Below are positions 19,557-46,521 of a stretch of DNA of 64,000 nucleotides, one piece after another. The position numbers and the translations under genes were made by a program. A model generated the notes under the pieces. That model did not search any database. It had not been told where the DNA came from and worked only from the letters and a program-made list of their open reading frames with translations. Source of the stretch: Balanoglossus misakiensis (Eukaryota; Animalia; Hemichordata); the NCBI GenBank assembly GCA_040954595.2, contig CM082590.2, positions 7,936,001 through 8,000,000 on the forward strand, written 5' to 3'. Positions within the stretch are counted from its first letter, which is position 1, and each line of letters begins with the position of its first letter.

Positions 19557-22500
19557 TTAGTCTTGTATCATTCGTCGAATCATGTAGTTCAGAATTCCAC
19601 CATGTCGGAAATAGGTCAACTCAACATCAGTGTCGAAGCGTACGACCGCTTTGAATGATTTCCCATCATCAACCTGTAACCAATCAGATAACATGTTAGA
19701 CAATGCACAGCGAATTACATGTTTTACAGCATTCTATTGGTTGATATAACATACATTACGCAAATAAAAACATGTTACAAAATTAGCTAACACATCAAAA
19801 TACATAACATCAAATTATAACATCATCTACACAATTTGGGACATGGGAATGAATGTCTGAACGCATATATGTTTATATGTTCCCAGAAAATTACAAGAAA
19901 ACTCTGTTTGTTTTTTGATGTTTTTCAAAAACATTGGTCCTTGGAAAACAAATCTACAGACATACAGCAATATCGGCAAGGGCCCTCCTCCATCAATCAA
20001 GTGTTACAGGGACAAAGTCTCTCTCTTGCTGCCCCCTTTCCATTAATTATGCTTGATACAAGACACCGTTCATGTTATTCTACACGTGGATATGTGAAAA
20101 AACTTGCCAAAATGAATAATCGGTCTCTACCATTTATTCATTTTGGGTGAGTTTTTACTCTCATATCATACAAGCAAGATGGAAGATGTGTGTGGTTGAA
20201 CATTGATTCTCTATATATCCACATGTAGAATAACATAAACAGTGTCTTGTATCAAACATAATTAATGGAAAAAGAGCAGCGAGAGAGAGAGACTTTGTCC
20301 CTTTAATATCTCACCTTGACATCGATGACTTGTTTTGTCTTGATGTCCTCTGGTATTTCAATGGTGTAGACTTCTTTCCCAGTGAGACCCAGACTCTCGC
20401 TATTCTCACCCTCCAGGAACTGCAGAGGTATGATCCCCATTCCCACCAAGTTACTACGGTGGATGCGTTCGTAGGATTCTGCGATCACAGCTTTAATGCC
20501 CTGGTAAACAAATAAATAAATAAATAAATAAACAAATCAATGATTTTGGGTAAGAAATATAACAAACATACAAATCAATAAATTGGGGTAAAAATGTGAA
20601 TGAACAAACAAACAAACAAACAAATCGATCAATATTTGGGGTAAGAAATACTCTAGTAAACAAAAACAAACAAGTCAATAAAGTGGGGTACGATATGTAA
20701 TAAACAAACAACAAACACATCAATAATGTGAGATAAGAAATGACCAAGTAAACAAGTAAATAAGACCAATAAATAAATCAATAAATTGGGGTAAGTAATG
20801 CCCTATTAAACTAACAAACAAACAAATAAAAAAATAATTAAGGGTAAGAAATGTGAATGCACAGCCACAGTATTGTCGACGAAAAATGTTGACATATTAA
20901 ACTCAATGTTTTTCCAAAAATGTTTCCTTTACATTACACTAGTTGAAATTTAAGCACATATCTAACAATTACTCATAGTTCCAACTAGTATGCACAACAT
21001 TGATCTCTGCAATTATGTGAGATGGCAAATTGAAATTCTTGAAGAGATTCTGGAAACCACTTTACCTGCAGGAATGGTCCTTTGGCGGCCCAGTCACGAG
21101 ACGACCCTGATCCGTAGTCCTTCCCGGCCAAGACGATCAACGCCGTGTTTTCCTGGCGGTATCTCTCAGCAGCGTCAAAGATGTCCATCTGGAAAAAGGA
21201 ATATTGAATCTTTATCAAAAACCATTCTTTTTGTACATATATACACAGTTGACATATCTTGCCTAAAGTAGCTTGTGAGGTCTGAATTCAAAATAACAAT
21301 TTTCACACAAAACAAAACAAAACAAAACGTAAATGAAAAGCCACAGGTGGTCTAGACCACAATGAATGCTTCAATAATAAAATATATCACTCTTTAAAAA
21401 AATCAACACAATTATCATTATTTCTTTAGAACACACTACACATACATCTCAGGAAATTACGCAAATTAATATCAGTAAAACTACAAGCAAAAGCTGAAAA
21501 GATAAAAATATACCTTAGTCCAAAATACAAGCCATATACAATGTACAGTAAAAAGAGTGGCTAAAATACTGATATTCATAATTATATTATACCAGTATAT
21601 TGATGGTGTAATTCACGCTATTTGATTGGTCGAGACATGACATGTGACCGTGATATATTAGCCATATACCACAGTCATATATCATAGTCAAAGAAAATGC
21701 CTTTTTAAAATGTTTTATGCAAAGTTTCCATATACTGGCATAATATAATAGCAATAAAACACCCCCAGCCATGGTATACCACTCGATTTTGACCAGTTCA
21801 ACTCCATATACGCACTCGCTATCGCTTGTGCGTATATGTTGTGAACTGGTCAAAATCTCGTGGTATACCATGGCTGGGGGTGTTTTATTGCTTAAATAGC
21901 ATCATCTTGAGGAAAACAGAAATAAATAGGTAAAAGACTTTCTACAAATGGTGACTGCTGTGCAACTCAAAGTTTTCAGTATGTTCTCGTACCTGATCTC
22001 CCGATGGAACATGGATAGTTTTTGGAGCAGCTTTTCCGATAAATTTGTTCAAAAGTCGAATATTTGCAAACGTGCCCCTGGCCATGACAGCGTCGTTACC
22101 ACGACGACTACCATATGAGTTGAATTCACGAGGAGTCAATCTGTAAAATACAAAAGAAATATTTAAGACTACCATCTCTGTGACAGCACTCTCAAATGAA
22201 CAAAATTGCTAACTTTTGACCCTAAACTGTGGCCGTGTCGAACCTGTCAACTTCATAATAATGTAAATTTTACTGACTGTTTTCGGTAATATTTCAACAA
22301 TTTTACTGAATGGTATTACATATGGACTGTGGATAATTAAAATACACTCATACTTTGTCAAATATCATTCAATCAGCCAATCTTTAGAAGTGGTTTTTAC
22401 AATTCTAAAAAGGCATGAGCAAGCCCCACAGCCAGCACAAATACTAACAGACACACATAGACAGAAAGGCAGACACAGACACACATACAAATGCACACAG

Positions 22501-25500
22501 ACAGAGAGAGAGAAACACACACATACACACATAGTTGCAACCTTCAGTAGTGATTTTACAATTCTAGGATTAAGCAGGCACAAACACTGACACACACACA
22601 AAGACACAGATAGACACAAACAAACACTAACATGCACACAAAAAGACAGACAGATAAACAAACACAAACATATACACATACACACACACGAAAGCATGTA
22701 AACAATCACACACAGATAGAAAGTGCACACAAACAGATAGACAGACATAAAAAACATACAGACATAATACACACAAACACACACAAATGCATGTAAACAA
22801 TCACAGACACACACATCACATCACATCACATCAGAGATCAGAAACACGAAGACTTACCCTCTGCCTGCAAGGTACCTAGCCGCAGGACTTGTGCGTGAAA
22901 TACTCCCAGCAGGTGAGATGTGGTCTGTGGTTACAGAGTCTCCCAGATTCAACAACACGCGGGCGTTACTCACGCCACTCACCGACGGCAACTCTTTGGT
23001 CTGAAACAGAAAACAACAACAATAATAACAACAACAACAACGACATATGTCATTTTCACAAACTGGCACGTTCACCCCCTCCCTACTTCCCTGTTCGAGT
23101 CCCACAATGCCATTCTGCTCACACTAGTCGCGATTACCCAAACTTCTTCATTCCACTGGGGCAAAAATCTACCCATAAAGTCTCCTAACAATATCAGTAC
23201 AGTCACCCCCTGGACATGAACCACCCAGACATTACCCACCCACCAATTAGCACTGGTGTTAGGAATGCCCCTGGGGTGCGTCACCAGGGGGTGACTGCCC
23301 TAGAATGCTACTCACCATGCTTTCAAAGAACGGTGGTGACTTGATGTATGTTGATTTGCCGTCCCACGGATACAGCTGACTGTCTGGAGCGTCCAGAGAA
23401 TTCCAACGTGGATTGCCTTCCCCTTTCTGTTGAATAAAACATACACAATATTAACCCTTTCAATGCCATGGTTTGAGCCAAAATCCACTGATTTCTATGG
23501 TAAAGTTGGACCTCTATACATCAAAATAGGGGTGAAAAGGTTAATGGCGTTCACTTTTTATTTATTTTGTCGAGGTTTTTACTCTCATATCCTACAAACG
23601 GGATGGAAGTTGTGTGTGGTCGAACGTTGATTCACTATATATTCACAAGTAGGATAACATAAACAGTGTCTTGTATCAAACAGAATTAATGGAAAAAGGG
23701 GCAGCGAGAGAGAGACTTTATCTAAACTTTACCTCAATAGTGGAATAGACTTCTTTGAACATGGCTGGAATGACAAACTGTTTCTCCACTTTATGGATTT
23801 CTTCTCGAGACGGCCAGATGTCTCGCAGGAAGATCTCCTTACCATCCGCACTTTTTCCTGCAAAGATAGAGTTTGTAGAGTAAAACAGGGTCAGTCCAAC
23901 AACAGTGTGTGCTCCCAATGGTGAAACTCGGCTGCTTGAGAAGTATAGGTGAGTTCGATGAAGAAACAAGCGTCGGGTTTCATAAATAGTTTCTTCATCG
24001 AACTCCCCTGCAAAGATAATCGAACTTGTGTTAGTGGACACCTCTATATAGTGGGAACTTGTCTACAGTGGCCATTTTATTTATGTACCGTACCTGTGTA
24101 TGTACATTAATTGACCTGTCTATAAAGGTCATATATCTATGACGAACAGTTAAAGGCAATTTTCTCGATCCCAGGGCAGAACAATGAAGGCAAACAAGAA
24201 TGCCTTTGTGTTAACACGTAACTGTTTATTGGAAACAAAAGATTTGACCCACTGTTGCAATGAGAAAGGCCTTTTAGAAAAAGTCTCTTGAAAGGCTGCT
24301 ATAGGCAAGTCTGTGTTTAGTGGCAACCTCTACATAGTGGAAACTTGTTAACAGTAGCCAGTGTGCCCTCTAAGTCCATATAATGCTACACTGACTCAAC
24401 AAACTCACTGATGACTGAAGAAAAATTACCAACACTACATGCAAAGGTATAGGGCTGACTCAGAGAAATTTTTAGAAATCCTCAAATTGACTCAAAGCTT
24501 TTAAAATTATGGTTGTTATAGGCATCTGTACAATGTACATGTGTACTGACCTGTCTATAAAGGTCATATATCTATATGTCATTCTTTGAACATCGTCAAG
24601 CCGTCATTTAACTCCACATCAATCTAACTCAGACAATTTCAAAGCAATGATATACTTACCAAGGGGCTGAGTCTCAAAATCAATGGACACAGTACCCGCC
24701 AAGGCATAAGCAATAACCAACAGTGGAGAGGCAAGATAATTGGCTCGTGTCAATGGATGGATGCGTCCCTCGAAGTTGCGATTTCCTGAGAGGACACCGC
24801 AGGCAACTAGGTCACCCTGAATAACAAACACAGTTAGTGTTACTGGTTTGACTATTTGTTATAAACTGAAAAACACTTTATTTTCGCTCGCAATAAATTT
24901 TCGCCAAATACGCGAGAGCCAAAATAGCGTGAAAATAAAAAGTCGCGTAAATTGTTTTTGAAGATAACGATGCAGTGAATGAAATAAGACAGCGCAAAAA
25001 TTAATACTCGCGAAACAGTGGCCTCTCTCGATATCGCGAAAGTTTCAACTCGCGAAAATAAAGTGTTTTACAGTATTTGTTATATACACACATTACAGAA
25101 AGACCTTATCTAAACCCTGTCCCTTCAACATTAAATAATGTTGAAAGAACCCAAATAAACCAGACACCTCTCTAAACTGAACAATTTTTTAAGTCAGGGT
25201 CTTTTCGCTCAAGTTTGAAATACTTGTTTCATTAACAGCAAATCGCAACATAATTTATGTGTCAGGTAACTTTTCCACCTCCGAAACAGTCCCCAAATTC
25301 ACACAAAAATATTAGTGATGTACATATTTTTTTCCAGATTAAACTACAGTCATATCTTACCTTTTCTATGGCTTCACTGACAGGCTCTGGGAGAGGTCCA
25401 CTGTTCCCAATACACGTCATGCAACCATAACCGACAATCTCGAAGCTGTGAATGAACGTATGTACATTAAAGACAAAGTAGCTGTGACTTAATATTTTCC

Positions 25501-28500
25501 GTATTTTGTCATGTCACCTACAGTTGTTCTTCTCCCTACATCATGTTGATATGCCAAGTATTCAGCTAGTCACCACAGTCAATATATGATATGCATTACT
25601 AGCAATTTTATTGTTGACAACTGTATTTTAGTCCGGACTAAAATTCAAATATCAACACTAACATGGCACTTCACAGTGTCATGATATGCAAAGTATTCAG
25701 CTCGTCACCATAGTCAATATATGCACTACCAGCGATGTTATTAGTGACAGCTGAATTTTTTTCTGGACTATAATTAAAATATCAACACTAACATGGCACT
25801 TTACAAGTCTACATACCTACTGTACTAATGACTCACCCGAGTTTTTGTAAGTAAGGAGTGACTCCACTTTCTTGTAAATAATAAGTGACGACCCCACTTC
25901 CGGGAGACAGACTTGTTTTGATGTACGGAGCCACAGCTAGCCCGGCCTCTACAGCCTTCTTGGCGAGTAAACCTGCGTGGAAAATGGGCTGCATCAGAAA
26001 GTATTCCAAACAGACATGGTACAGTAAAACCTGTCTAAACCAAACACCAAAGGGACTGAAGAAATTGGTCAGTTTCCAGGTGTCTAGTTTACAGAGGTTC
26101 TTTTAACATGTGGTTCAATGTGAAAGGGACAGGAAAATGTGTTCAGTATAGACAGGTTTCCAGATTAGACAGGGTTCGGTTTGGACAAGTTTTACTGTGG
26201 CTGACACATGATAAGTATTCCAAAAAGACACGATAATATGCAGTGTTTATAGTTTATAGTTTCCGCTGGGTGGGCAAGTGTTTACTTGTACTAAGCCTAA
26301 CTGATTGGTTACTAGTATTAACTTGCTTGCACAAGGCACGACTGAAGTATCAACCAACTTATACCAAAATGATCTGTTACTAGAATTAACTCCTATGCAA
26401 AGAACACAACTGTAACAGTAACTGACTTGTACCAAACATAACTGACTGGTTACTAGTATCAACACACTTGCAACTTGCACAACTGATGGTTAACTATCGA
26501 TATACATATTAACCTATGTAAACTAAACATAACCAATGTATTAACTCACCTGCACCGAGCATAACTGATGGGTTACTGGTATTAGTACAACTAGTTATCG
26601 CAGCAATGACCACAGATCCATGAGACAGGACGTATTCTTGACCGTCAAAGACAAACGGCTTTTTATCCGACTGTTTGGCCGGGTCGATGTTGAATCCCTT
26701 GAAGCCCACTTTGTTGTCCAGACACATCTGGAAGTCGGTCTTCATATCCGTCACTGGGACCTTGTCGTGGGGACGCTTTGGTCCACTCACACAGGTCACA
26801 ACAGTGCTCAAGTCCAGTTCGACAACCTGTAACAGACACACATTTTTGTCATATTCACACATTTTTCTATATTTTCCCCCTTATTTTTGGACCAAATGGA
26901 CCTTATTTTCTATTGTCTTCAGATCTTAATCAAAATTTGAGAAAAAAAAATAACTGGGAAAAGATATGAGTGTATTTTTTGAAAGATGACGACAAGATGA
27001 CTATTGCATTGAGAGCAGAAGATTATTCAGATACAGGACTGTATGGATGAAGGAATGGCTTCGGAAACTACTGCACATTGAGTTTAGTGAGTGAATTTTC
27101 TTACAGTCAACAAAGTTATATATACTTTACATGATTGTCCCCCCACTATGATATACATTATTTGTATTGATAAAATATTAGCTTTATGTTTCATTTGTTT
27201 TGTGACAAGATACATGAAGGCTCACCTGTGAGAACTCCGGATCCTGATCAGAGTTGTTAAAATCTCTCAACATTTTATTTGCCTTCAGATACGCTTCGAT
27301 GAATTTCACCTTTGCTTCATCTCTCCCTGTGTATAAAAACAATGACCATTTAACCTTTTCACCACCATGGTTTGGCCTAAATCTATTGTTTTCTATGGTA
27401 TAGTTGGACCTCAATAGAGGGAATGGGGGTGAAAGGGTTAACATTCATGACAAAGGTGAGTACAATCTTAACTCTTTTCCTACAGGGGCTTGACCCAAGG
27501 AAATTATCCACACTACATACAAAGGTATACGGCTGACTCATAGAAATGTTCATAAATCCTCAAAGCTTGTACAAATTATGGTTGTTAGATGGCATGTTGA
27601 TGCATGGAATGATAGGGGGTATGAAATGGCACTCCTTTTCACTGATTCAGAGAGAAAGGGGTTTAATATCTGAGTGTTGACTCACCAGTTTGTCTCAGGT
27701 AGGTAACAGTTCTCTCATCCGCTGGGAAGAAGCCCACAGTGGCACCGTATTCAGGACACATATTGGCGATAGTGGCTCTGTCAGCGATGGAGAGCTGAGA
27801 CACACCGGGTCCGTAGAACTCCACAAATTTGCCGACGACACCGATCTGACGCAGATGCTGAAATGGAGATGATGGGGAGAACGGTCAATAGGTAAGTCTC
27901 GAACAGGAATAAACATGCTTGTATAGAAGATTTTCTTGTAACAGTAGTTTTGAACAAGTGAATAATTTCAAACACTGAAATGATTAAGATTATGCCTGGC
28001 ATTTCTGTATTAGAAAACTTCAAAGAATTTCACTGAACTTAAAATTTTTTTCTTTCTAATCCAGTGCTTATAAACATTGCATTACATGATCTCTTGCCAA
28101 GTCAAACTTTCTTGCCACTATAAAGTACTATGAATGTAACAATTTAGACCCACAAACATAAATAAAATATGTACACAACAAACAACCAACCAACCAAAAC
28201 ACAAACAACACATACATACCTAGATACACACACACATGTATAAACCCAACAAACTACACTCAAACAAATCAAACAACACAAGTAAACAATACATGCAAAC
28301 AAACAACAAATAGCACAAACAAACAACATAGACACTAACATATACATACACACACAAGACAAGCATACATACACAGACCTAAACCAACCTTAGTAATTGT
28401 CAACACAAGATAGATACATACATGTATAAACTCAACGAACAACACACTGAGACAAACAAACAAACAAATAAACAACACAACACTTACCTTAGTAATTGTC

Positions 28501-31500
28501 AACACAACATCAGTGGATGTCACCAAGCTACTCAACTGACCAGTCAGTTTATAACCAACAACTTTCGGTAACACCATACTGATAGCTTGTCCTAACATCA
28601 CAGCCTCTGCTTCTATGCCACCAACACCTGAATAACAGAACAAAATATCAAATTATATATCTTTTATTTCTTTTTCCCTGCTCCCCAACTATATGCAGTA
28701 TTCTCATGTCCATGTATAGATTCAATGTATGTAGTGATTATGCATACACACCAATTTTGTTCTGGAGAGCAATGACCAGAAGACTTCCAAGGAAACTTGC
28801 TATGTTACCCCTTTCATCACCAAAATGGAGCGAACCTTGTTGTTCTCCATGGTTTGACTGGACCAATACACATCACAACATAGGGGTGGCACTAACACAG
28901 ACTGACTGACTGACTAACTAATTAACAAACTAACTAACCAAACAAAATAAACTGATGTACAACTCACCCCATCCAACAATTCCAAGTCCGTTGATCATCG
29001 TAGTGTGAGAGTCAGTACCAACCAAACTGTCTGGATACAGAACACCATCATGGTTGAAGACCACACGTCCCAAATATTCCAAGTTGACCTGATGGACAAT
29101 TCCGGAGCCAGGCGGGACTATCAACATGTTGCGAAAGGCTTTGGCACCCCACTGTAGTAAAACAAAACACAAAGTTACACATTGGTAAGATATATTTAAC
29201 CCTTTTACCACCATGGTTCAGTCCAAACCCATTGTTTTCTACGGTAAGGTTGGACCTCTAAAGAGGGAACTGGGGGTGAAAGGGTTAAAGTTCCAGTAAC
29301 TGCCAACTTTGAGCTGTTTTCTCATTATTATTGCTTTATGTATCAACTGTGGTTTCTTGTTCTACTCTATGAAACAGAAAATAACTGCTCAGTATTTGTT
29401 TTTTCAACACAGCCATTTTTTAGTAACCAGCACTGTTATTGTTGACAAATGAATTCCAGTCCAGATATGAATTCCTTTGTCAACAATAACAGTGGTCGTT
29501 ACTGATGTACAGGCTTTGTAGGAAGGTAAAGACTGAACATTTCATAAAGCTATCCAGAGTTGAACAAGAAACTGGATTTGAGACACTAGAAAAAAGAGAC
29601 TGAAAAAATACGCAAAAGGGGATGAAAACTACCAAATTACATCACAGATCACCACGGAAATAGCTCTGAGTGTAAAAGCAGAATACTACATTCATTTGAT
29701 TTGTGGAATCCAAAAAAAATACCCATGAAATATGAAAATATTTACATTACTGAAGAAAGTGATAAATTACCTTTAAGAATAGAAATCTTTCTTTGTTTCT
29801 TTCGAATTCCAACTCCTGGTTCTTCTCAAGTGCATCTGAACTGTAAGACATCAGAAAATGTGTACAAATTAGTGCTTATTTTATCTTCCCCATTTTCTCA
29901 TACTTTGACCCACAAAATAATAGGACTGTACCACTCTGCCATACAAAAAGGGGTGCGGCAAGTAGTCACAAACTTCCATCACATAATACATGGTAATTCC
30001 ATTAACCTAGCACCAATTTTTTTAAGTGTAGGGGCTCATGTCTCAAAACAACGTTCAGGTTTCTGTCTGGAAAGCTCAATTTTCATTACATTGTTTTTGT
30101 GACCATTCAGCGAGCCAAATATCAACCAGTGAGACAATCAAGACTTATTCATACAACATACACAATAACAAGTGTTCGGGCAATAGGCCTACTCTGGATT
30201 AAATGACACATGCTGACAGCTAAAGTGTTCTCTAAAAAAGATGCACAAAATAAGTCTCGCATGATAGCAGTACAAACAACTATGCATGGATGAGTATGGT
30301 TTCGCCTATAACTAAGTAACACAGCTAGTCGCATGTTGACTAGAGCAGTGTTTGTCACAACACTTTTCAGATTTCAGATTTCACAATCATTCCCATGGTC
30401 AGAATCAGCCTACATCCGGCAGTTTGAACTTTTGTGGTATTAACCCTTTCACCACCATGGTTCAGTCCAAAATCATTGTTTGCCGTGGTAAAGTTGGACC
30501 TCTACAGAGGGAAGTGGGGGTGAAAGGGTTAAAGCTGAGATGATTCCCACATAGTGTACAAATAGTGGTGTACTGGGCAAACTTGATATCTGACCAGGTA
30601 TAGCTAACTAGGATTTTAGTGTATGAAGCATGATGGAGAACGTTATAAATCTACAATGACATGATAATATTTTAAGGTATGAAGATATGAATGAAAACAT
30701 TCTATAATGAATGAATAGCTACATTATAATATGCACAGCAAACATCTGGCAACACCAAAAACAAAACAAAATTGTGTTTTAAATTGAAGGATAAGTAAAA
30801 ATATTTTAAGAACTACTCATCAGATCCTATGAATGTACAACATTCACCATTCACAATAAACAATATTAAACTGATAATTTTGAAAGATCCATTAAAAAAT
30901 ATAATATAACATTACTAAGTATCTCATAAATTTAAGACCTAAATAATTTAAAGAACGCTGAATCTGAAGTCTGGCAATTTGAGATTAATCACAAATCCTA
31001 AGATTCACACATCAAAGAAATCAAATCAACTTCAGACAACTCTAAGAAATTACTGAGTTTCATCTCAAATCCTAAAGTTCAAACATCATAGAAACCAAAA
31101 TATATATATTTAGAAATCAAATGACAGAAACAAACTAAAAACGCTAAATATTAGAATCAAACTATTTGGAATTAGCAAAATCAAAATTTTTGAAGAATAA
31201 ATTTAGATGAAACTAACCAATCAGTTGAATGACAGAAACAAACTAAAATTGCGAAATATTAGAATCAAACTATTTAGAAAGAAACAAATTTTCACAAAAT
31301 CAAATTTTTTGAAATATAAATTTAGATGAAACTAACCTATCAGTTGAACGACAGAAACAAACTAAACTGCTAAAAATTAGAATCAAACTATTCAGAAAGA
31401 AAGGAATTTTTGCAAAATCACAATTTTCGAAATAAAAATTTAGATAAAACTAACCAATCAGTTGAATGACAGAAACAAAGTAAAATTGCTACAAATTAGA

Positions 31501-34500
31501 ATGAAACTATTTAGAAAGAAAGGAATTTTCCCAAAATCAAAATTTTCGAAATATAAATTTAGAAGAAACTAACCAATCAGTTGGAAGGTTGTGAAAGGGG
31601 CATATCTGGTCTAAAAGTGGTAATCCTGAGTGCAAACAGGCTGAGCATGTGTACGCATCTTTCTTGGATGCAGTTGTTTTTTGTTTCCCAACACCACCGC
31701 CCGGATTGGGTGCGTTTGGCACTATCCTATACGGCCTACGAAATGAAGAAAACAACATCATTGTCAGATACTTCTGTTTGAAACTTCTGTATACCGTACA
31801 TTGAATGAAATATTGAAAATAACATCAATGTATTGTGATACGTTTCAATTATATTTGGAAGAATATGTTGTATTTGGCACTATCCTATACCTATACTATC
31901 CTAAATAACATCCATGTGATACATTTCAATTTTATGAGGAACTTGAAGAATATCATGTTGTTTGGCACTATCCTATACGGCCTACGAAATGAAGAAAACA
32001 ACATCATTGTCAGATATTTGGAACAATATCTTCTTGTTTGAAACTTCTGTATACCAAACATTGAATGAAATATTGAAAATAACATCAATGTGATACGTTT
32101 CAATTTTAAGAGGAACTTGAATAATACTCTGTTTGGCACTATCCTATACGGCCTACGAAATGAAGAAAATAACATCATTGTCAGATATTTGGAACAATAT
32201 CTTCTGTTTGACACTTCTGTATACATTGAATGAAATATTGAAAATAACATCAATGTGATACGTTTCAATTATATTTGGAAGTATACAACATTGTCGTAAG
32301 ATATTTCATGTTTGGAATATTGAACACAACTTCTAAATCTTTCACTGAATGTTTAGTCTAGTCTGTCTACAGGCAGAAAGAACCTTGTTTAAAGGTCACC
32401 AGTTTCAAGAAGTCAAACAGCATAGATAACTTTTCATATCACTCAAAATTGACCAAAATAAGAGAGCAACCTTGTCCCTTTAAAGAATGTGATCCCCTGA
32501 CCCTAAATCAAGAGCTCTATCCCATTGTCAGCAAGTTCACACACAGTAGAGATCTAGAACTACATTTCCAACTGGATCAGCTCTGGGCGAACCCAAGTCC
32601 AGCTTGCGTTAGCAAAATAAGCATCTCACTCGCATCACATTTAACACAGGCTGCATAAACAATATTGCAACACTGGCAGTAATACCCTGTTCACACTGGG
32701 TAAAACTAGAAATGTTTCAGAGACACTATGACTATTTGACATTTGTAAACACACAGGATTAATCTTTTGAGTCGCTTTGTGTCCTCACACACAAAATTAA
32801 AGCGACTTGGCCCCATAGCGTGTTGCAGATAGGTATTAATCCTAACACCAGCTCAGGTCTGGTTGACACAACCGTCTCAAATCTGAAACGTTCCAGGACC
32901 AAATAAACTGTTCACACGTAATATTTCTTGCCAGTATTTGAGCTGAGATGGTTGAGAAACCTTTAGATGATTCCTGTGTGAACACCATGTCATTAACAGA
33001 GACTTACGAAAGTATCTCGAAAAACAGAGAACACACAGAAACAGGATGAAAATATAGTTGGTCAAAGATGACATGAAGATGTATGAGAATTTTTAAATCA
33101 ATAGAAAATGCAGATGTAACTCAATCAAGAAAAATTTAATATGGAAATAAATATGGAGTTTAAAAAACCACTTGATTTCGTTACCCAAGATATTTTGTAC
33201 ACTGAACCCTGTATAATCTGGAAACCTGTCTATACCGAACACATTTTCCCGTCCCTTTCACATAGAAGCACATGTTAAAAAACCTCCATACACCAGACAC
33301 ATTATACAAACCGAACAATTTCTTCAATACCTGTTGAGTACAGTTTAACCCTTTCACCACCATGGTTCAGTCCAAACTCATTGTTTTCTGTGGTGGAGTT
33401 GGACCTCTATAGAGAGAACTGGGGGTGAAAGGGTTAAATATGTTTTTTTTTATACCTTCTGTGCATTTTTTCACCCACCTCCCATTTTTCCATCACCCTC
33501 ATCCAAGTTTATCAACCCCCTCTCTAAGCTGGTTTCCTCGGAAACCGATACAATATTCTTGATTCTTACATACCTTCTTGAGACGTCGACTTGCACCGAA
33601 TGGTCGATCACCAAATCAGCTGGACACACCGGATTAATCTTCTGGGGGTCACCCCCAAGTCTCTTCACTGCATCACGCATTGCAGCAAAGTCAACCACTG
33701 CTGGTACACCCCTGTTGGGAGAATAAGTAAATCCTGGATGAGAATCATGATGGAATAGGCCACTTTCATCACCTTACATCCTTGTATGTCTGATGGTGTG
33801 GGATTGTCAAAATTCAACATTCTGAGACAAGAATTGGGTAAAATATTGCTAGACACCCCTGTTGGGAAAATGAGCAAATCCTCCATCAGAATCATGATGG
33901 AACAGGCCACTTTGAACCTTTACAATATGAGGTTGTCTAAGTTCAAGTATTGCTTGCCTGTCATCTGGAAATGACAACGCCATGGGTCACATTGCCAGAT
34001 CACGCGATTGATAGTAAAGAATACCTTTACACGCATACCATGATAGTTGTGTACCTTGCAACCATAGCAGTGTTTTTGCTAAGGATGGGGAACATTGGTA
34101 ATGGATTTGGGAACCCCCGGAAGCATTCCTACAACCCCCTAATATAACTACATTGATACACCCAGGGGAACCCCGGTAAAATGACTGGGGAACTCTGGTA
34201 GATTTTACCTAGGTACCGCCCTTAACAAAAACACTGCATAGGTTGAATAAACTCACTGGTGAATTAGCAACAACTTACGTAAAGTCTTGTAGAATGACCC
34301 TTGCCGGTTTGAAGGGTATCTCCACATCCTTGTCCTGATTGTCTTTCCAATTGATGATCTTTTCGATGTCTTCTTCCTTGACGTGGAAGTTGTCACAGTT
34401 TCTGACCGACGACTCCAGAAGCACACGGATTGAAAATGGCAGTTTATCTGCAAAAAATGATAGTAATTTTTTTTAATGTACAGTCAAAACTGTCTATAGT

Positions 34501-37000
34501 GGCCAGTCAATGGACTTTCCTAAACTGGCTTTTTAGACAGGTGGCCTTTATATAGAGGTTAATTTATCTCCTTGTAAATTGCACAGGGACTGTAACAAAG
34601 AGGCCACTATATAGAGGTGGCCACTAACACAGGTTTGACTGTACATGTAAATTGCACAGGGACTGTAACAAAGAGGCCACTATATAGAGGTGGCCACTAA
34701 CACAGGTTTGACTGTACATGTAAATTGCATAGGGACTGTAACAAAGAGGCCACTATATAGAGGTGGCCACTAACACAGGTTTGACTGTATCAGTAAGTGG
34801 TATGTCATTTGGGCTAACGTTACGGTGGCCTGAACAAAGAGAGAATGAGCTAAAATCGTAAAATTGTGTTATTTCTAAAATGTTTGTCAATTTTACATAT
34901 TTTGTTTATAAACATCATGTTCCTATTATCCATCTATATTCTGGTATATACCATAGAAAAAAGATTTGGTATCAGTGACATGTGAGTTGAGCTTCAAGGA
35001 CACTAGCCATAACCTGTTCACCCCTATTTCAAAGTAAAATGGTCCAGCACTGCCTCAAGAACAATGGAGTTGGACCAAACCATGATAGCATAAAGGTTAA
35101 ACCAATGAGACAATGGGCTAAAACAACACACTGTCAGAGCTATAAATATAAATGTTGGTATTCATGAACTAATAATGGACAAAACTGCAAAGTCATGTCG
35201 CCCCAACCCACGTTTCTATGCAGACCATATCAACTGTATCATCTCCATTGGCCAGCTAACCTGTACTACGGACTTTTGGGGGTCAAAGATCACACTCACC
35301 ATATCTGGAATCGTTCAGATTGCCCAGGTTATAGTACTTGAATTCTTGGCTGTCAACCGTGAGTGTGTCAAGCACACGTGATTCGAATGGGTTTTCACCT
35401 GAAAAATAAACATGATGACATTAATATCAGTTAAAGACAACAGTTTCTGAAATGCAGATCGATTGTGTTTTCTAGTGGCCATAACCACTGAGGTTCGATT
35501 CATCTTCAAGGGACTTCATTCTTAGCAATATGCCTTCTAACAAACAATTTTTATAAGCTTTGAGTCAATTTGAGGATTTTAAAAAAAATTCTCTGAGTCA
35601 GCCCTATACCTTTGCATGTATTTTTCTTGAGTCACCAGTGAGTTTCTTGAGTCAGTGGAGTTAACATGGGCATAGAGGGCAACTTACTTCCATGAATTAA
35701 TATCATTCTTGAGAGACACTGGGAGTAAGGGCTTTAATATCAAGTTTACTTGAAATTATTACTTTGATTCTAAACTGGGGAATTTTGCGGCCAGGAACAA
35801 AACTACAACAATTTACATGCTCTGAAACCACCTATAGTTAACTGAATAAGTTTTATTAAAAATAACTATGACAGGTATTTTTAACATATTGTTAAACCTA
35901 TTATTAGCATGAATTCAGTTCCTGTTCAGAAAAACAGTACAGTGGCTGGCAGTATATAACAGGGATCAAATATTTCAGAACTTGGGAAAAAAGTCATTCT
36001 TTTCTCAAATGTGATTGTCATATTTATTTATATTATGGGAACAAGAAAATTTTGATTAACATTTAAAGGGACAAAGTCTCTCTCTCGCTAACCTTTTTCC
36101 ATTAATTATGTTTGATACAAAACACTGTTTATGTTATTCTACATGTGGATATATAGTGAATGAACATTCAACCACACACAACTTCCATCCCACTTGTATG
36201 ATATGAGAGTAAAAACTCGCCCAAAATGAATAAATGGTAAAGAACGATCCGGCAATATCTGATTGGTCGATACTATCTGCTCAGGTTTGCAGATAGTATC
36301 GACCAATCAGATATTGCCTGAGTCTTAATTAAATTAGCCAAACAGTTACATCATCGAAACAATGTTGAGGTCAACAGTTGACCTGACCTGCCCACTGCAG
36401 GTCACACGCCCGCATTTGCATATAGCCCCACACCTCCCCTTACATGTAGCAAATTTTCAATGTCACATTTAACACAGACAACGAGACAGACATACATCAT
36501 ATTGTATGAATAGGACAATATGAATTTTCCAGCCAACAGAAGAGAAACAAATTTAATATTTCTAAGTATTTTTAACTTTCCCAGTACATGTTTTGCAAAG
36601 TCACGCCATGCCCTACTTTATTGACCTTTGACCCTTGCGTCTCTGAGTTACGCAAGTGGCGTCCTCGCAATTTATACAAAACCAGTTTCCATGGAAATCG
36701 GAAGAACAATTTTTCGCGCTGAATATTTTGTTCCTGGTGGTGATAAATCTGCGTTCTCTCTCTCTTAAAATGAGCGAACATATCCCCTGTTCCCAGTCGC
36801 TAGACCTGTGGCCTCGTTTGGTAAGTTACGAGTCAAGCCCCAATTAGCCTTCCGCGAACGTCGCCATATTCCCTCGCAGACGGAGTAATGTGAGTTTCAC
36901 TTAAAATATACTCTAACATCACATAGCACAATTCTAGCATCGGCGGGCCCCCAAAAATTGTTAGAATGCGACATTTTTAACACTTACCTGCCACAGCCAT
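19557..37000 (-). CDS. ACO1: Cytoplasmic aconitate hydratase / iron regulatory protein 1; 20 constitutive coding exons (897 aa; 951 aa with the candidate cassette exon)
   Basis: Exons assembled by hand, all GT-AG and phase-consistent: 36988-37000, 35300-35398, 34279-34447, 33574-33711, [31574-31735], 29771-29840, 28968-29151, 28488-28627, 27686-27857, 27226-27326, 26550-26826, 25837-25972, 25361-25445, 24660-24816, 23733-23857, 23316-23426, 22858-23000, 21993-22140, 21066-21188, 20315-20500, 19557-19673 (TAA). Motifs: [76 protein letters not shown] (the three Fe-S cysteines), [43 protein letters not shown]. Confidence 0.96.
20008..20302. mobile_element. Palindromic TTAA MITE in the last ACO1 intron
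   Basis: Same termini; ends 12 bp from the exon edge at 20315. Confidence 0.78.
22440..22830 (+). repeat. Degenerate CA-rich low-complexity tract (ACO1 intron)
   Basis: Direct reading; similar tracts at 28170-28480 and 20505-20830. Confidence 0.85.
24866..25073. mobile_element. CpG-rich MITE with termini CTG(A/T)AAAACACTTTATTTTCGC
   Basis: ctgaaaaacactttattttcgc ... gcgaaaataaagtgttttacag; related termini at ~50073-50243. Confidence 0.7.
26022..26197. mobile_element. TA-type MITE (same family as 44700-44877) in an ACO1 intron
   Basis: cagtaaaacctgtctaaacc...ggtttggacaagttttactg inverted termini. Confidence 0.8.
30440..30532. mobile_element. ~90-bp piggyBac-like MITE (TTAA|CCCT...AGGG|TTAA)
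   Basis: ttaaccctttcaccaccatggttcagtccaaa...gggggtgaaagggttaa. Other copies: 23451-23544, 27350-27441, 29196-29288, 33345-33437, 45626-45718, ~49715-49797, ~49950-50035; partial ~51732-51770. Confidence 0.8.
31574..31735 (-). CDS. Candidate cassette exon of ACO1 encoding an IRP2-like Cys-containing insert (54 aa)
   Basis: Acceptor ttttcttcatttcgtag, donor TG/gttagt; phase 2-2; 162 nt (a second in-frame AG gives 153 nt). No stops: (R)[53 protein letters not shown](C). Lies between the [10 protein letters not shown] and SDALEKNQ exons. Confidence 0.8.
34481..34787. mobile_element. CAGTCAAAC-family MITE with its 3' 73 bp triplicated
   Basis: gtaaattgca.agggactgtaacaaagaggccactatatagaggtggccactaacacaggtttgactgta at 34574, 34647 and 34720. 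Confidence 0.8.
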
Positions 37001-37918
37001 GATTGTGTCCTGGAAAATACACGTATTACTAGACCCGTCTTGTTAAATGGATGCTGATTGAATAATGTAGTATGCAAATTCAATATAAAATGGGCACATT
37101 AAATATAAGACTCGGCAGATCTTTTGTATTTACTCAATCTAGCCATGACTTAACATATATCATACGATATCAACGTCAAACAGTGCACTCCAACTAATTC
37201 AGATATGTAGAATAACCCTGTTTTTGTGTCATTTTCGTCTTTTTCTCCAATATGCGTCAGATAGCCAATCAACGCAGCTCTTTCATTTTCTTGGGCTACA
37301 GAAATGCTGGGTCAAAGGTAAGCGCAAAAAGACTATGTAATTTTACAAATTGTCGCGTTACAAGAAAAGATTGTGGATTTTCACATTATTATTTTTAATT
37401 ATTAATTGAAAAAAGAGACGTTCAGCAGAAATAGTTTTGATTATCTTAAAACAATACAACGTGACCTTTGCATTTAAGAAGTCAGCAGACATGCGCATAA
37501 CCAGTACATATGTTCTAATGGCGACCAAGGTCGAAGTGACCACCACGGTGTTTGTGATATTTCAGCTCAAGATCTGAAGCGGATCTCGTATAACCAGGTA
37601 TTCCTACTGGATCAATGTAAGTTGTGTAGTTTCAATGTAAGTGGATGTGTGTAACTTTCTCCGGGCAGTGTGAACAAAAGATATTAGGTCAGACACTGTC
37701 CTTACGTAAACCCGGTCACCTGATCTGACATCTTCCCCACATGAATCTTACCCCTGAAGAAAGCTAGCGTCTTTGGATTTACTGGAATTATATAAGTGCT
37801 CTGCGGTTGATCGATATGTGCGATGCGGCCAGGAAGCTGGGCAGCTTGTTTGTGAGTTCGCGGTGCGTGATTGTGTACAACTGTTTTTAATACAACAAAA
37901 CAAACTTGGAGTGTGAAA
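37001..37918. promoter_or_regulatory. Probable bidirectional promoter / 5' UTR region shared by ACO1 and SLC25A44
   Basis: Divergent ATGs 918 bp apart; relatively CpG-rich; CCAAT (agccaatc ~37263) and octamer ATGCAAAT (~37072). TSSs cannot be determined from sequence. Confidence 0.6.
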
Positions 37919-39982
37919 ATGGCAAGCGGAAGTAGAGACACGAAGATCATTGAATGGGATGATATGGACAAGCGCAAATTCTATGGTTTTGGTGTGATGA
38001 TATCCATGGGGATTAGAGCAGCCATCTATCCGTCGATTCTGGTGAAAACCAGACTTCAGGTCCAGAAACACGATACGTATTACAAGGGGACATGGGACGC
38101 ACTGAAAAAGATCATCCGATACGAAGGCGCGCGCGGGTTGTACCGGGGTTTTATGGTGAACGCGTTTACTGTCTTCTCCGGACAGTGCTACATCACAACG
38201 TACGAGCTGATGCGGAGACGGTTCAAGCACGCCAGCAACACCACGAAATCCTTCGTCGCCGGGGCGGCCGCCTCGCTGGTCGCGCAGACGATCACCGTGC
38301 CCTGCGATGTTGTGTCTCAGCTCCTGATGATGCAAGGTCAGACCCACGGAGGAACTAGAATCACTGCCGATGCGAATGGCTCATCTTCCCTGAAGCGAGC
38401 CACTGGAGTTATTCGGACTATATGGCTGAAAGAGGGAATGTCTGGTTTCTACAGAGGTTACCTAGCGTCTCTGATGTCATTTATTCCTAACAGTGCGCTG
38501 TGGTGGCCTTTCTATCATTTCTATTGGCGTAAGTTATATTTCATTAAAGGGACAAAGTCTCTCTCTCACTGCCCTTTTTCTATTATTTATGTTTGATACA
38601 AGACACCATTTATGTTATTCTACGTATGGATATATAGTGAATCAACGCTCGACCACACACAACTTCTATCCCGCTTGTAGAATATGAGTAAAAATCTCGC
38701 CAAAATGAATAAATGGTAAAGACTGATTATTCATTTGGGCAAGATTTTCACTCTCGTGTCTACAAGTGGAATATAAGTTGTGTGTTGTCAAACGTTGTTT
38801 CACTATATATCCACATGTAGAACTAGAATAACATAAACTGTGTCTTATATCAAACATAATGGTAAAAGGGCAGCGAGAGAGAGACTTTGTCCCTTTAAAC
38901 CCTCAAAGTGTATATATGTACACAGTGTACAGTCATTCCTAAACTGGCCTTTATAGAAAGGTGGTCACTATAGACAGATCAATTAATGCACATGGAAATT
39001 GCACAGGTACTGTAACAAAATGGCTACTATATAGAGGTGGCCACTTACATTGGCTGTATATGGGCGTATGTAAATTGGAGGTGGCCGTATACCTTTAATT
39101 AATATCTTTCAGCCATTCCAGTTAAGTAGAAGACAAATCAGTCATGCAGTGATGAAAGCTCAACATGCTTCCAACGCTTTTTTCCATTATACAGTAACCT
39201 CTCCTCTTTTACAAGTTTTGACATGTCTAATGTACACATCCACACTTGTCCAATTTCAGAGCAAATGGCCGCCGTCACTCCTGATGGAGTCCCTATCATA
39301 ATCATCCAAGCTGTGGCTTCCCCACTGGCTGGAATGTCTTCAGCAACTCTTACAAACCCGATGGATATCATCAGAACTAGACTGCAGGTGAGTTGCTCTC
39401 ACAAGTGTAATTAAAAACATGTGTCGAGCGTATACTCTACAGTCAAACCTGTCTATAGCAGCCAGTCACATGACTTTCCTAAACTGGCCTTTATAGACAG
39501 GTCAGTTAATGTACAAGTAAATTGCACAGGGACTGTAACAAAGTGGCCACTATATAGAGGTGACCACTAACACAGGTTTGACTGTACATGTGAATTGCAC
39601 AGGGACGGTAACAAAGTGGCCACTATATAGAGGTGACCACTAACACAGGTTTGACTGTACATGTGAATTGCACAGGGACTGTAACAAAGTGGCCACTATA
39701 TAGAAGTGGCCACTAACACAGGTTTGACTATTTGACATATGTGTCGCTTGTTCTGTTGCGATAACATCCTGTTTGTGTCTTGTCTCCTAGGTGACGGGCG
39801 GTGACTCCATCATCACGACGTTTACCACGCTCATGAAGGAAGAAGGTCCCAAGGGATTGACCAAGGGTTTGACGGCGAGATATCTGTCCGCCGCCCCTGC
39901 CAGCTTCCTCCTCTGTGTCAGTTATGAACTTCTCAAAAGAATCAGCTTAAAAGGGGAGCTTATAGAAACCAGAAAGTGGTAG
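37919..39982 (+). CDS. SLC25A44: Mitochondrial carrier SLC25A44 (branched-chain amino acid carrier in mammals); 3 coding exons, 309 aa
   Basis: Exons 37919-38528, 39260-39387, 39791-39982 with GT-AG junctions. Family-diagnostic stretches IIEWDDMDKRKFY, SGQCYITTYEL, IPNSALWWPFYHFY and C-terminal ELIETRKW; carrier signatures YPSILVKTRLQ, VPCDVVSQ, NPMDIIRTRLQ. Confidence 0.93.
38548..38894. mobile_element. Palindromic MITE with TTAA target duplication and AGGGACAAAG termini (Kolobok-like by TSD and termini)
   Basis: ttaa|agggacaaagtctctctctc...gagagagagactttgtccct|ttaa with long internal inverted repeats. Other copies: 20008-20302, 41762-42107; partial 23575-23718 and ~36067-36244. Confidence 0.8.
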
Positions 39983-42107: not shown

Positions 42108-42455
42108 TTAATCGGTAGAATGACAACTCAAACCATACCAAAACTGCTTCAAAGTAACTCTTTTCCAGCACCGCCCACCCCCATATAAAGTGGGATGCCC
42201 CTCACTTTGTGAAACCGACCCCACCCACGTTTGACCTTGCAAAAGACATCAACCTACCCCAGGCGGCCTCTAAGGTCAAATTGTACCCCCTAAGATAGTC
42301 ATTCATAAATCACGCTAATTTACATATTGCTGCAATGGATTGCAGTCACTTATATTTGTACATCCTGATGTGCTTCAATAATTCCAAGATAAAGGGCTCT
42401 GCTGAAAAGTCTTTGTATATCTGTGCAGATAAACACATCCTGGGATCTGTACAGA

Positions 42456-44669
42456 ATGGCGAGTGGAGGCGAAGGTAAATTCCTCCAAGAAATCAGTGAT
42501 GATTTCCTCTGCTGTACAATCTGTCTGGAGTTGTATACCACCCCGAGAATTCTGCCCTGTCTGCACACATTCTGCGAGCCGTGTTTGGTCACTCTTGTCG
42601 GCAGCAGACAGACTGTGAAATGTCCGGAATGTCGGACTGTACATCACCTCCCCGTCGGCGGGGTTCCCGGGATCACGCTCAACTTTTTCATGAATGGCTT
42701 GGTCGGGAAATTCCAGCAGCATCAGTCGGCGCCCACCGGGGCATCTTCGATCGATTGCGAGGGTTGTCGGGAAGACACGGCCACTCACAAGTGTGTACAG
42801 TGCAAGCATTATCTCTGCAGCAGCTGTGTGAAGGCCCACAGAAATCTCCCCATTACCCGGACGCACCGACTTCTGACCATCGAAGAATATGAAACAGCAG
42901 AACCGACCAGTCCTGTGGCGTTGCATCCCGAAGATGGAGATTACTGCATCTCACACACAGACAGCAAAATTGAATTCTACTGCGAGACCTGCCAGGTGCC
43001 TGTCTGTTCAAACTGCATGCAGAAACACTCCAGCGCTATACATGTACGCAGAGACTTGAAAAATGCAACTGATGAGTGTTTTCGCGACTTGAAAGTCATG
43101 GTGGACAAACTGAAAGTGAAAGAACAGGAAACTGAAAAGAACAAAAGCCTGGCCAAACAGATATACAGTGATCTGACAGATCAGCGCGTGAGAGAAGAAA
43201 GGAAGGTGAGAACGACAGCAGAAGAAATCATCAACAAAGTAAAGAGAGAAGAGCAGAGACTGGTAGATGAGCTGAATGAAAGTTACAAACTGACAATGAA
43301 AACAGCAGCTGTGGGCATCGATGAGTTGGAATTAAAACATGGTAACATTAAGAGTACATGCAGTTACATTGAAACACTGATGTATCATGGGAATGCGGTA
43401 CAACTGCTCTCTACGAAGAGTGATGCAGAGCGCCGCATCAATCAACTCATCGCCATGGATACTAAAGTGCAAACAGCGCATGAAGGGGTCGTCTTCATAC
43501 CCAGCAGCGAGTTTATTCAGCCAGTTGTTCTTGGGATGTTGACAATAGACTCTGGGGTCTGCGTCTCGAATTGCACAATTGAAAACATCCCAAAACAACT
43601 TCTGAAAGGTGACTCTGCACACCTGCTGATCACAACCAGAGATTCCACAGGAAAACAAGTCGTCCCAAATCAACCAGTGAAAGCCAAGCTGAGAAAACCT
43701 GATGCATCATGGGAGGACATCAAAGTATCAGATAACAGAGATGGTACACACAGAGTGACAGTGACTGGACAAATGGATGGTAAACATCAAGTTGCCGTGA
43801 CAATAGGAGATCAAGCAATACCAGGCTCTCCTGTCATCATACCTGTCATCAGAGGATTATTACATACATTTGGCAGTTACGGAAATGCTGAGGGACAGTT
43901 CAACAAACCCCTGAATATGGCCATAAACAGAGACAAAGACATTGTCACTGCAGACACAGACAATAACCGACTACAAATAACCACCAGAGACGGCAGAGTT
44001 AAGAAAATCTTGAATTTTACACAATTTGAAAAACCTTTCAGGCCACGTGATGTAGCTATTTCAAGTGATAATACACACTATAGTTTAGATGGTAACAATA
44101 AGCAAGTAGTTGTCAGTGATGAGAACGGACGTGTCATCAGATGCTTTGGACAGAATGAGCTGAAGGATCCATTTGGGCTGGCTATCTGTCCTATCAGTGG
44201 CAACGTCTATGTCACAGACTGGGGTGAGCATTGTGTGAAGATTTACACGCAGCACGGAACGTACTGCAGGTCGTTGGGGTTAAAGGGTAAAGGTCAGGGG
44301 AAATTCAATGAGCCCTGGGGAATCAAAGTCGGGTGCAACGGTTTGGTGTTTGTGGCCGATTACTCCAATAAGCGCATCCAGGTGTTCGATTCCGATGACA
44401 AGTATTTGTATTCCTTCGATTGTCAGTGCGGGGACGGCAAATTGAGGTGCCCCCGGGGAATTGATCTGGAAGGGGACAAGTATGTGTACGTCACTGCCAG
44501 TGGGGATTGCGTACTGAAGTTTGAGAGAGGGGGTTTGTTCGTCTGCCGGATTGACTGTTCCCAGGTGAGGCTGAACTACCCCACTGGCATCGCACTGACA
44601 GACGATGCACCTTGTAGCGTGGTTGTCGCTGATAGGAACAACCACTGCATCAAAGTGTTTGTCCAATAA
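42456..44669 (+). CDS. TRIM-NHL E3 ubiquitin ligase (TRIM2/TRIM3-like), copy 1, 737 aa, single coding exon
   Basis: RING (CTICLE...LPCLHTFCEPC...CPECR), two B-boxes, coiled coil, filamin/Ig repeat (DNRDGTHRV...IPGSP), NHL repeats (GQFNKP, VADYSNKRIQVF). ATG at 42456 follows an acceptor-like tgtacag, as in copy 2. Confidence 0.92.
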   Translation: MASGGEGKFLQEISDDFLCCTICLELYTTPRILPCLHTFCEPCLVTLVGSRQTVKCPECRTVHHLPVGGVPGITLNFFMNGLVGKFQQHQSAPTGASSIDCEGCREDTATHKCVQCKHYLCSSCVKAHRNLPITRTHRLLTIEEYETAEPTSPVALHPEDGDYCISHTDSKIEFYCETCQVPVCSNCMQKHSSAIHVRRDLKNATDECFRDLKVMVDKLKVKEQETEKNKSLAKQIYSDLTDQRVREERKVRTTAEEIINKVKREEQRLVDELNESYKLTMKTAAVGIDELELKHGNIKSTCSYIETLMYHGNAVQLLSTKSDAERRINQLIAMDTKVQTAHEGVVFIPSSEFIQPVVLGMLTIDSGVCVSNCTIENIPKQLLKGDSAHLLITTRDSTGKQVVPNQPVKAKLRKPDASWEDIKVSDNRDGTHRVTVTGQMDGKHQVAVTIGDQAIPGSPVIIPVIRGLLHTFGSYGNAEGQFNKPLNMAINRDKDIVTADTDNNRLQITTRDGRVKKILNFTQFEKPFRPRDVAISSDNTHYSLDGNNKQVVVSDENGRVIRCFGQNELKDPFGLAICPISGNVYVTDWGEHCVKIYTQHGTYCRSLGLKGKGQGKFNEPWGIKVGCNGLVFVADYSNKRIQVFDSDDKYLYSFDCQCGDGKLRCPRGIDLEGDKYVYVTASGDCVLKFERGGLFVCRIDCSQVRLNYPTGIALTDDAPCSVVVADRNNHCIKVFVQ

Positions 44670-44877: not shown

Positions 44878-46521
44878 TACATTCTAAATATTACCAACTT
44901 TGGATGGAAATTCTTTGCGATGAGTGATTGACAGATGCTGGTATACTCACAGAGTTAGTGAGTTATTCCAAACATTCTTAATTACTTTTTGTGTGCTAAG
45001 GTGGTCAAATCAGACATTTTCAATGCATTATGGGTAAAATCACCCACAACTCGAGATCGAACATAGCACACACTATTACCCACCATAGTATGTGTACACA
45101 AAATTAATGATTTAGTGTTGGCATTGTTATATTACCTACTCTATACATCTTATATTTAGCTTACTTCAAAATATGTTGTACTTGTGTACCAGATGTAAAT
45201 TGATTTGACATTGAAAATTAATGCCAATTATTCTTTATTTATATAGCAATCAAAATAAGCTCTGTTTATTAAGTAAGGTTTTAGAGCTTTTTAACTTGAA
45301 TGTGTTTACATGTATATAGGTGTGTAATTTTTGACTGTCTGGTGCTTAGATAGAAGTTATTGGTAAACAATAATATAAGGACCTATAGTGTTTAATTTTA
45401 ACAGAATAGAATCTTGTATTACAATTGTTAGATTTCAGAATTGTGTACCCAGTATTTCAAAAAAATTATTTTTGATGATGTGTAAATTACAAGTACAATA
45501 TGTGAATGAATGTATGTAGGGTAATTTATGAGAAACAAGTGGTTAATTTAAATTCTTTTAGCTATTTTCTCAGTATTTGTCCTTACAAAGTTAAACAAGA
45601 AACCACAATTGGACTTTCTGGTTCTTTAACCCTTTCACTACAATGGTTTGGTCCAAATCCATTGTTTCCTATGGGAAGGTTGGACCACTATAGAGGGAAC
45701 CGGGGGTGAAAGGGTTGAAAAGTTGAAAATCAAGGTTTTCAAGGGACTGAATAGAATTTAGTTGGTACGGTATAAACAGTGGCTATCACAAAGATTAATT
45801 GTACAGGTACATTAATTTATCACTCAGTTAATGGCTTTTATCAACAAAATAAATCTGTCTACTCTGTCAGCTTTTATCTGACTTCCCTGACCTCAAAATA
45901 ATTTGTCTCTCTGTGTATAAATACCTCCAGTTGACATGTTCTGTTGATAAAACTGTCAACTAGTCTGGTCAACTGAAATTTCAGTCAGTGTAGTTGGCAT
46001 TTTCACTTTGATATCAGATAAAGGCCAAAATGAACATAAGGAACTTTTTCTGCAGCTCTGATGTGATATTTGAGCTTTTGGTCACATGAAAGATATGTTT
46101 GATATGAAAGAGTTATAATACGGTCTTACATCCTAAAATGTTGATAATTCATCAGTACATGAAATTTCTGACCTAGATTCATATATTTGCAGACAACAGA
46201 GATTGTGTGCAACACTAGAACTAAGGATTGGCATACTTCAGTTGTCTGGTACACTGCAGGTATTTGTACCATTGTTGTGAAGATGACCCAGCGATGACCT
46301 CAGATTAGTTGAGAAATATACCCACAATTCTCACACCAGTTTTTCAATTGTCTTGGTGTACGCCTTAAGTTAGTCACATATCAATCACACTATTTACATA
46401 TCATATACTTTGATTCACTGATGACGTATACTCAGACATTTTGAAGTGTTTCAATACCATCAAGATAAGGGGCTCTGCTACAAACTGTTTCTGAAGCTTT
46501 TAGAGTTGATACACGTACAGA

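Follow-up and report, generated by a model that had tools for sequence, protein, structure and literature searches.

The window, by which we mean the whole 64,000-nucleotide stretch of Balanoglossus misakiensis DNA that was analysed, contains on its minus strand a gene of the cytosolic aconitase/IRP type. The parts of the gene considered below are as follows.

19557..37000, minus strand: complete coding region, with 21 exons, of the cytosolic aconitase/IRP gene (from the exon table, the comparison with Ptychodera flava X1 and the tree)
33574..33711, minus strand: exon 4, constitutive, upstream of exon 5; contains the active-site Asp-His pair
31574..31735, minus strand: exon 5, a likely cassette exon for an IRP2-type insert (NAPNPGGG ... 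CSAC ... CPFH), 162 nt, phase 2-2
29771..29840, minus strand: exon 6, constitutive, downstream of exon 5; begins SDALEKNQ
26550..26826, minus strand: exon 11, first Fe-S cysteine motif (IRP1 C437, T438, N439)
25361..25445, minus strand: exon 13, second and third Fe-S cysteines (IRP1 C503, C506)
21066..21188, minus strand: exon 19, GSGSSRDW; its serine is of the IRP1 type and is replaced by Asn in human IRP2

Head to head with this gene lies a mitochondrial carrier exon (37871-38593, plus strand; PF00153), presumably SLC25A44-like, the two start codons being about 0.9 kb apart. Further along the plus strand, two tandem single-ORF genes (42393-44666 and 46510-48729) encode TRIM2/3-like proteins of about 735 aa with RING, B-box, filamin and NHL domains, and an ORF on the minus strand (50658-51557) gives weak C2H2 zinc-finger matches. 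Two near-identical repetitive open frames on the plus strand, 52 kb apart (9814-10413 and 61998-62555; the first has no Pfam match), are likely a dispersed repeat; an array of long imperfect repeats, seen as recurring translations, occupies about 14700-17000.

Exon 5 is located in an intron of 3,733 nt (33573-29841). The coordinates of the exons, the length of 162 nt, phase 2-2, the AG/GT ends and the peptide given for it in the initial annotation were all reproduced from the sequence. When the exons are joined by coordinates, the model with exon 5 has 951 aa and the model without it 897 aa; both frames are open with a terminal stop only, and the annotation was right that inclusion and skipping each preserve the reading frame. 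Among the six frames of the window PNPGGG occurs once, inside exon 5. The 53-residue peptide of the exon, used alone as a query, retrieves two hemichordate aconitases (E 7e-18 and 8e-16), and its identity is 81% with Glandiceps over the whole length and 70% with Saccoglossus.

The gene belongs to the AcnA/IRP-type family, its orthologues having both PF00330 and PF00694. The skipped model is identical to isoform X2 of P. flava at 826 of 897 residues (92%) and the included model to X1 at 867 of 951 (91%); identity with newt ACO1 is 72%. In a tree of 43 rows, computed with the insert left out and containing no IRP2, the gene clusters with the proteins of Ptychodera, Glandiceps and Saccoglossus (SH-aLRT 99), deep branches being mostly unresolved. 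A scan of the window against Rfam gave no matches, i.e., no IRE at the gathering score.

The motif GSGSSRDW places a serine at position 778, the catalytic base of the aconitase, and all three Fe-S cysteine motifs were found. The seven IRE contacts (R269, S371, K379, T438, N439, R713 and R780) are likewise all present, as judged by motif; the list of these residues follows section 14 of PMC3048577. The initial annotation noted that the gene keeps the cysteines and the serine. Both are there; however, the cysteines are not diagnostic, since human IRP2 (PDB 6vcd_A), which has GSGNSRDW, nevertheless keeps the three cysteine motifs. Therefore, the serine alone separates the gene in the window from IRP2, and the cysteines were rejected as an IRP1 marker. 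The assignment of the gene to IRP2 itself was also rejected, as the catalytic serine is retained.

The splice sites of exon 5 are canonical, as had been annotated; they are, however, atypical for this gene and lie inside tandem duplications that the annotation left unmentioned. Its acceptor is the sole TAG among the 20 introns, and its donor is the sole GTT (T at +3), the other donors having a purine at +3 in 19 of 19 cases. Scored with a matrix built from the gene's own sites, a small sample, the donor is the joint second-weakest and the acceptor the second-weakest of 20. The duplications are two.

31903..32270, minus strand: 171-nt tandem repeat, which duplicates the exon 5 acceptor and the first 7 codons of the exon twice
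31175..31583, minus strand: 119-nt tandem repeat, 3.4 copies, which duplicates the exon 5 donor three times

The extra acceptors at 32152 and 31981 are in frame and run into a stop at 31893, and read-through toward the extra donors at 31455, 31337 and 31218 reaches a stop at 31539, so that each of the two acceptors and three donors leads to a premature stop. These sites could be options for poison splicing or could be neutral. A 94-nt dispersed element also flanks the exon (30440-30533 and 33345-33438, copies 91% identical), and similar text occurs in other introns.

A comparable donor seems to be present elsewhere. Eleven database ORFs carry the insert as a lone exon followed by intron-like sequence, and after the split codon all 11 continue with L, F or S and then V. 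Provided that those exons are phase 2, this pattern implies a GT-pyrimidine-N-GT donor, i.e., a pyrimidine at +3. By similarity, the ORFs are starfish-like, priapulid-like and gastropod-like, plus eight that resemble each other, which makes about four lineages; 3 of the 11 come from a search biased to long read-through. We infer that a weak donor common to several phyla fits an alternative exon kept over a long time.

The existence of two forms in relatives is indicated by public gene models. For 13 species the same contig carries a model with the insert and one without it, and the two show 0-2 other mismatches: P. flava (953 and 897 residues), two Asterias, Acanthaster, two Branchiostoma, Babylonia, two Octopus, Owenia, Priapulus and two Centruroides. 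The pairs of Babylonia and Octopus also differ at the N-terminus, and in B. belcheri both forms are found in different assemblies. These pairs are automatic gene models from several annotation sources, not reads. At the junction, the P. flava protein has SRR...DC when the exon is included and SRS when it is skipped, which is the change in the split codon that the window predicts and that is proper to a phase-2 exon. Transcript-sized contigs of both kinds exist (insert-bearing proteins P0009 and P0024 on 3.4-3.6 kb, insert-less P0143 on 3.1 kb) and suggest that both forms are transcribed in some animals. For the window, a look for RNA runs with a 9.2-kb query listed none, a result that says nothing about expression. 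The annotated proposal that a single invertebrate gene may yield two isoforms thus finds backing in the same-contig pairs of 13 relatives, and in the ancestral bilaterian gene the insert was likely optional, encoded by an alternative exon.

It may be supposed instead that exon 5 is homologous to the IRP2 insert and is always included in B. misakiensis, which would then have one aconitase-competent IRP with the insert. Clusters with insert-bearing members only do occur, namely Glandiceps (1), Saccoglossus (2, partial) and Ornithodoros (4); 12 further insert-bearing species are outside this reading of clusters for insert-less forms. Still, the closest relative, P. flava, at 92% identity, has both models, and the splice sites of exon 5 are weak; we regard constant inclusion as improbable. 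Less probable again is that the exon, though ancient, is in decay in this lineage or is spliced wrongly most of the time. The duplicated splice sites, each leading to a stop, would agree with that; on the other hand, the peptide is conserved over its full length at the level quoted above for Glandiceps, with the motifs and the frame intact, and we consider decay very unlikely.

The same low standing is given to the proposal that the insert-less models of relatives are artefacts guided by vertebrate or insect IRP1, the ancestral exon being constitutive and lost separately in vertebrate IRP1 and in other lineages. The read support behind the models is not visible, and P0143 has a scorpion-like source that may itself lack the exon in its genome. 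Against this, the same pair recurs in 13 species and several annotation sources, the weak donor pattern recurs across phyla, and invertebrate IRP cDNAs are described as IRP1-like, the insert being unmentioned in the available text of PMC4184891 and PMC8947174. It is hard to give such artefacts any real weight, and we retain the alternative exon as the preferred reading.

The relation of exon 5 to the IRP2 insert, proposed in the initial annotation, was brought out by alignment with human IRP2: 6vcd_A has an identical NAPNPGGG and a CPFH at the position of exon 5, and the boundaries correspond. The Glandiceps orthologue aligns with human IRP2 in a single piece and with human IRP1 in two pieces, the break at residue 134/135 being the position of the insert; its best PDB match is IRP1 (1451 bits, against 1280 for IRP2). 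The split codons of exon 5 project to residues 137 and 210 of IRP2 (a hand count), which are 73 apart, the published length of the insert. According to PMC3048577, the 73 residues of IRP2 come from a separate exon. The cysteine of CPFH is residue 201 of IRP2 by hand count on the alignment (CPFH being C201 to H204), and the motif stands 15 residues ahead of the next core Lys; this spacing is shared by IRP2 and by nearly all of the insert-bearing relatives that the pattern matched. Either anchor, NAPNPGGG or CPFH, was found in none of 100 insert-less relatives; the chance of both is about 2e-13 on the insert's own composition, a rough and post hoc figure.

The proposed homology rests on position and two short anchors. 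A profile of 14 invertebrate inserts searched against PDB sequences found no IRP2 (0 matches at E up to 10), and the same profile returned no vertebrate protein among 19 matches. The insert-only profile probably misses IRP2 because the stretch that joins the two anchors varies both in how long it is and in its sequence. In Pfam the window peptide had no match, and three weak single-member matches among the 14 inserts (E 0.08-0.12) were disregarded. No usable vertebrate IRP2 protein was present among the relatives from three homologue searches or in the representative set, and IRP2 is accordingly absent from the tree. An independent origin of the two inserts at a permissive intron, for which one may cite the failure of the profile and the unrelated 5-residue additions that sponge and crinoid models carry at the same junction, has next to no probability and is close to refuted, considering that the two anchors share their order, a fixed spacing and matching boundaries at that rough, post hoc chance. 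The additions in question, in P0162 (Dysidea) and P0023 (Anneissia), are perhaps due to alternative acceptors or microexons.

In all, 29 named invertebrate species proved to have the insert, as collected from the region search, the cluster members and the profile search: 3 hemichordates, 5 echinoderms, 3 amphioxus, 10 molluscs, 1 annelid, 1 priapulid and 6 chelicerates. These are the groups in which the initial annotation had advised looking for the peptide. The region search covered the best 120 of 7,887 matches; an insert of more than 20 residues is present in 22 of the 120, and 19 of those 22 have both anchors. By species, both anchors are found in 27 of 29, the cysteine pair in 23, the three Fe-S cysteines in all 29, and the aconitase serine in 28, the Saccoglossus model being partial and without that region. 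CPFH is absent in two octopus species, whose inserts (P0025, P0150, P0155, P0159) keep NPGGG, and two proteins (P0024, P0177) keep CPFH and have no NPGGG; the cysteine pair is absent in 3 spiders, 1 mussel and both octopuses. The length varies from 31 to 117 residues, with spider and scorpion inserts reaching 87-117. Across 14 inserts P-x-PGGG, one cysteine, a proline and CPFH are invariant, and the second cysteine is present in at least 90%. In the same genus of cephalopods, the 1,482-aa model P0151 (Octopus vulgaris), named aconitase and pyruvate kinase, is probably an annotation fusion of neighbouring genes.

Two sponge isoform pairs have no insert, nor have the insect, flatworm and newt proteins among the matches listed, of which other isoforms may carry it; cnidarians, tunicates and cyclostomes are outside the sampling. 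Because the insert is present in aconitase-type genes on both the protostome and the deuterostome side and also in IRP2, it appears to be older than the divergence of IRP1 and IRP2, whatever the rooting. The data support an age of at least the protostome-deuterostome ancestor. The initial annotation had placed the insert before the duplication, which agrees with these aconitase-type genes, and had understated its age.

On the structural side, the core of P. flava X1 is confidently modelled by AlphaFold (pTM 0.80), and most of residues 132-197 have a pLDDT below 50; the predicted disorder agrees with the unstructured insert of IRP2. Folded alone, the insert gives a mean pLDDT of 62.7 and a pTM of 0.29, the half from the cysteines to CPFH being the most confident (about 70-75). 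A fold search with this weak model was uninformative, none of 48,161 chains reaching Z 2, and an atlas search on the insert region gave three matches below 0.9, all aconitase fragments, which we treat as a lead only.

The following mechanism may be proposed. Skipping of exon 5 would give an 897-aa classic IRP1, with the Fe-S switch between aconitase and IRE binding, since the checked catalytic and IRE-contact motifs are all present. With exon 5 included, the protein would have 951 aa, an unchanged core and, in addition, a predicted disordered surface loop bearing NPGGG, the cysteine pair and CPFH, which would be placed about ten residues past the active-site Asp-His pair. The conservation of three Cys and one His suggests a heme or metal site, and CPFH supplies, at the same spacing, a Cys-Pro motif equivalent to C201-P202 of IRP2. 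PMC2267205 names C201 as a proposed heme ligand of IRP2 and treats heme binding by IRP2 as contested. The sensitivity to heme or oxidation that the initial annotation put forward for the insert-bearing form, disputed for IRP2 as well, would be no more than a possibility here. The loop may hold a thiol-based ligand site, at which the Cys-Pro motif would bind heme or the three Cys and the His a metal, and may in this way adjust IRE binding or the choice of targets, not acting as an iron degron; for this we see slightly less than an even chance.

The insert as an iron degron was considered and rejected, as IRP2 without the insert is still degraded (PMC2267205 and PMC2854138). Iron sensing for the degradation of IRP2 is done by FBXL5, as PMC3048577 has it. 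IRP2 without the insert is reported to have failed to raise TfR1 (PMC2854138), and by analogy a role of the loop in target choice would fit that report.

The insert is absent in human IRP1, rabbit IRP1 and newt ACO1 and present in human IRP2. Invertebrate IRPs group with IRP1, apart from IRP2, in PMC8947174. We believe it quite probable that exon 5 is a homologue of the exon for the 73-residue IRP2 insert and likely spliced alternatively, as a legacy of the ancestral bilaterian gene, and that IRP1 and IRP2 then partitioned the two forms. Once the gene had been duplicated in vertebrates, IRP1 likely settled on the skipped form and IRP2 on the included one; IRP2 would then have lost the catalytic serine. 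A broader statement is offered tentatively, as one that may well fail in some part: that the IRP2 domain is a pre-vertebrate alternative exon with a weak 5' splice site across bilaterians, that its regulated splicing gives a two-form sensor in which the cysteine pair and CPFH sense heme or a metal (3Cys-1His), and that IRP1 and IRP2 are frozen splice forms.

As to novelty, PMC4056636, PMC2854138 and PMC3048577 regard the 73-residue insert as a feature of IRP2 alone and describe its function as unclear. The open literature yielded no account of it in invertebrates; most subscription papers and supplements were outside the scope, so that a prior report is possible. Isoforms with and without the insert appear to be already in public annotation, unremarked, and exon 5 is real, conserved and apparently undescribed. 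A bilaterian-wide exon in aconitase-type genes would rewrite the origin of IRP2 and predicts a layer of splicing in invertebrate iron control that is unexamined. The residues kept by selection (NPGGG, the cysteine pair and CPFH) can be pointed out as targets for mutation, and natural pairs with and without the insert on an identical core would be a cleaner test of it than deletion mutants of human IRP2.

Compared with vertebrate IRP1/ACO1 (PDB 2b3x, 3sn2), the gene in the window has the same Fe-S cysteines, the equivalent of serine 778 and the IRE contacts. It differs in that a 54-codon exon can be added at the place of IRP1 residues 134 and 135, between which IRP1 itself has nothing inserted, and in having Ser at position 685, as in sponges; a domain 1 free of any insert, as in IRP1, would be a feature of the skipped form only. 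With IRP2/IREB2 (PDB 6vcd) it shares the position of the Cys/Pro-rich insert in domain 1, NAPNPGGG, the central cysteines, CPFH, an exon of its own for the insert and the unstructured or predicted disordered state. IRP2, however, lacks aconitase activity and carries Asn in place of the catalytic Ser, which the gene in the window keeps; the insert of IRP2 has 73 residues and is part of the standard protein, while that of the window has 54; and the core of the gene is nearer to IRP1, by the orthologue's bit scores (1451 against 1280).

The described invertebrate IRP1s (ark clam PMC8947174, earthworm PMC4184891, razor clam PMC12896564, sponges PMC7034838) are similar in that a single IRP1-like gene is present and IRP2 is reported missing, to judge from the available text of these papers, where no mention of an insert or of a splice form was found. 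The tree in the accessible part of PMC8947174 lists two insert-bearing starfish accessions as IRP1, without remark. The nearest general parallel is subfunctionalization of splice forms as treated in PMC4417111, PMC4494069 and PMC5306129, where forms of one ancestral gene end in separate paralogues; ACO1 and IREB2 are unmentioned in the main text of the three papers. Alternative splicing in unduplicated outgroups, which is expected under such a process, is seen in the 13 same-contig pairs, amphioxus included, these being models and not reads. The present case differs from those in that a cassette exon is taken or left as a whole, and that this choice appears to be retained in many invertebrate phyla.
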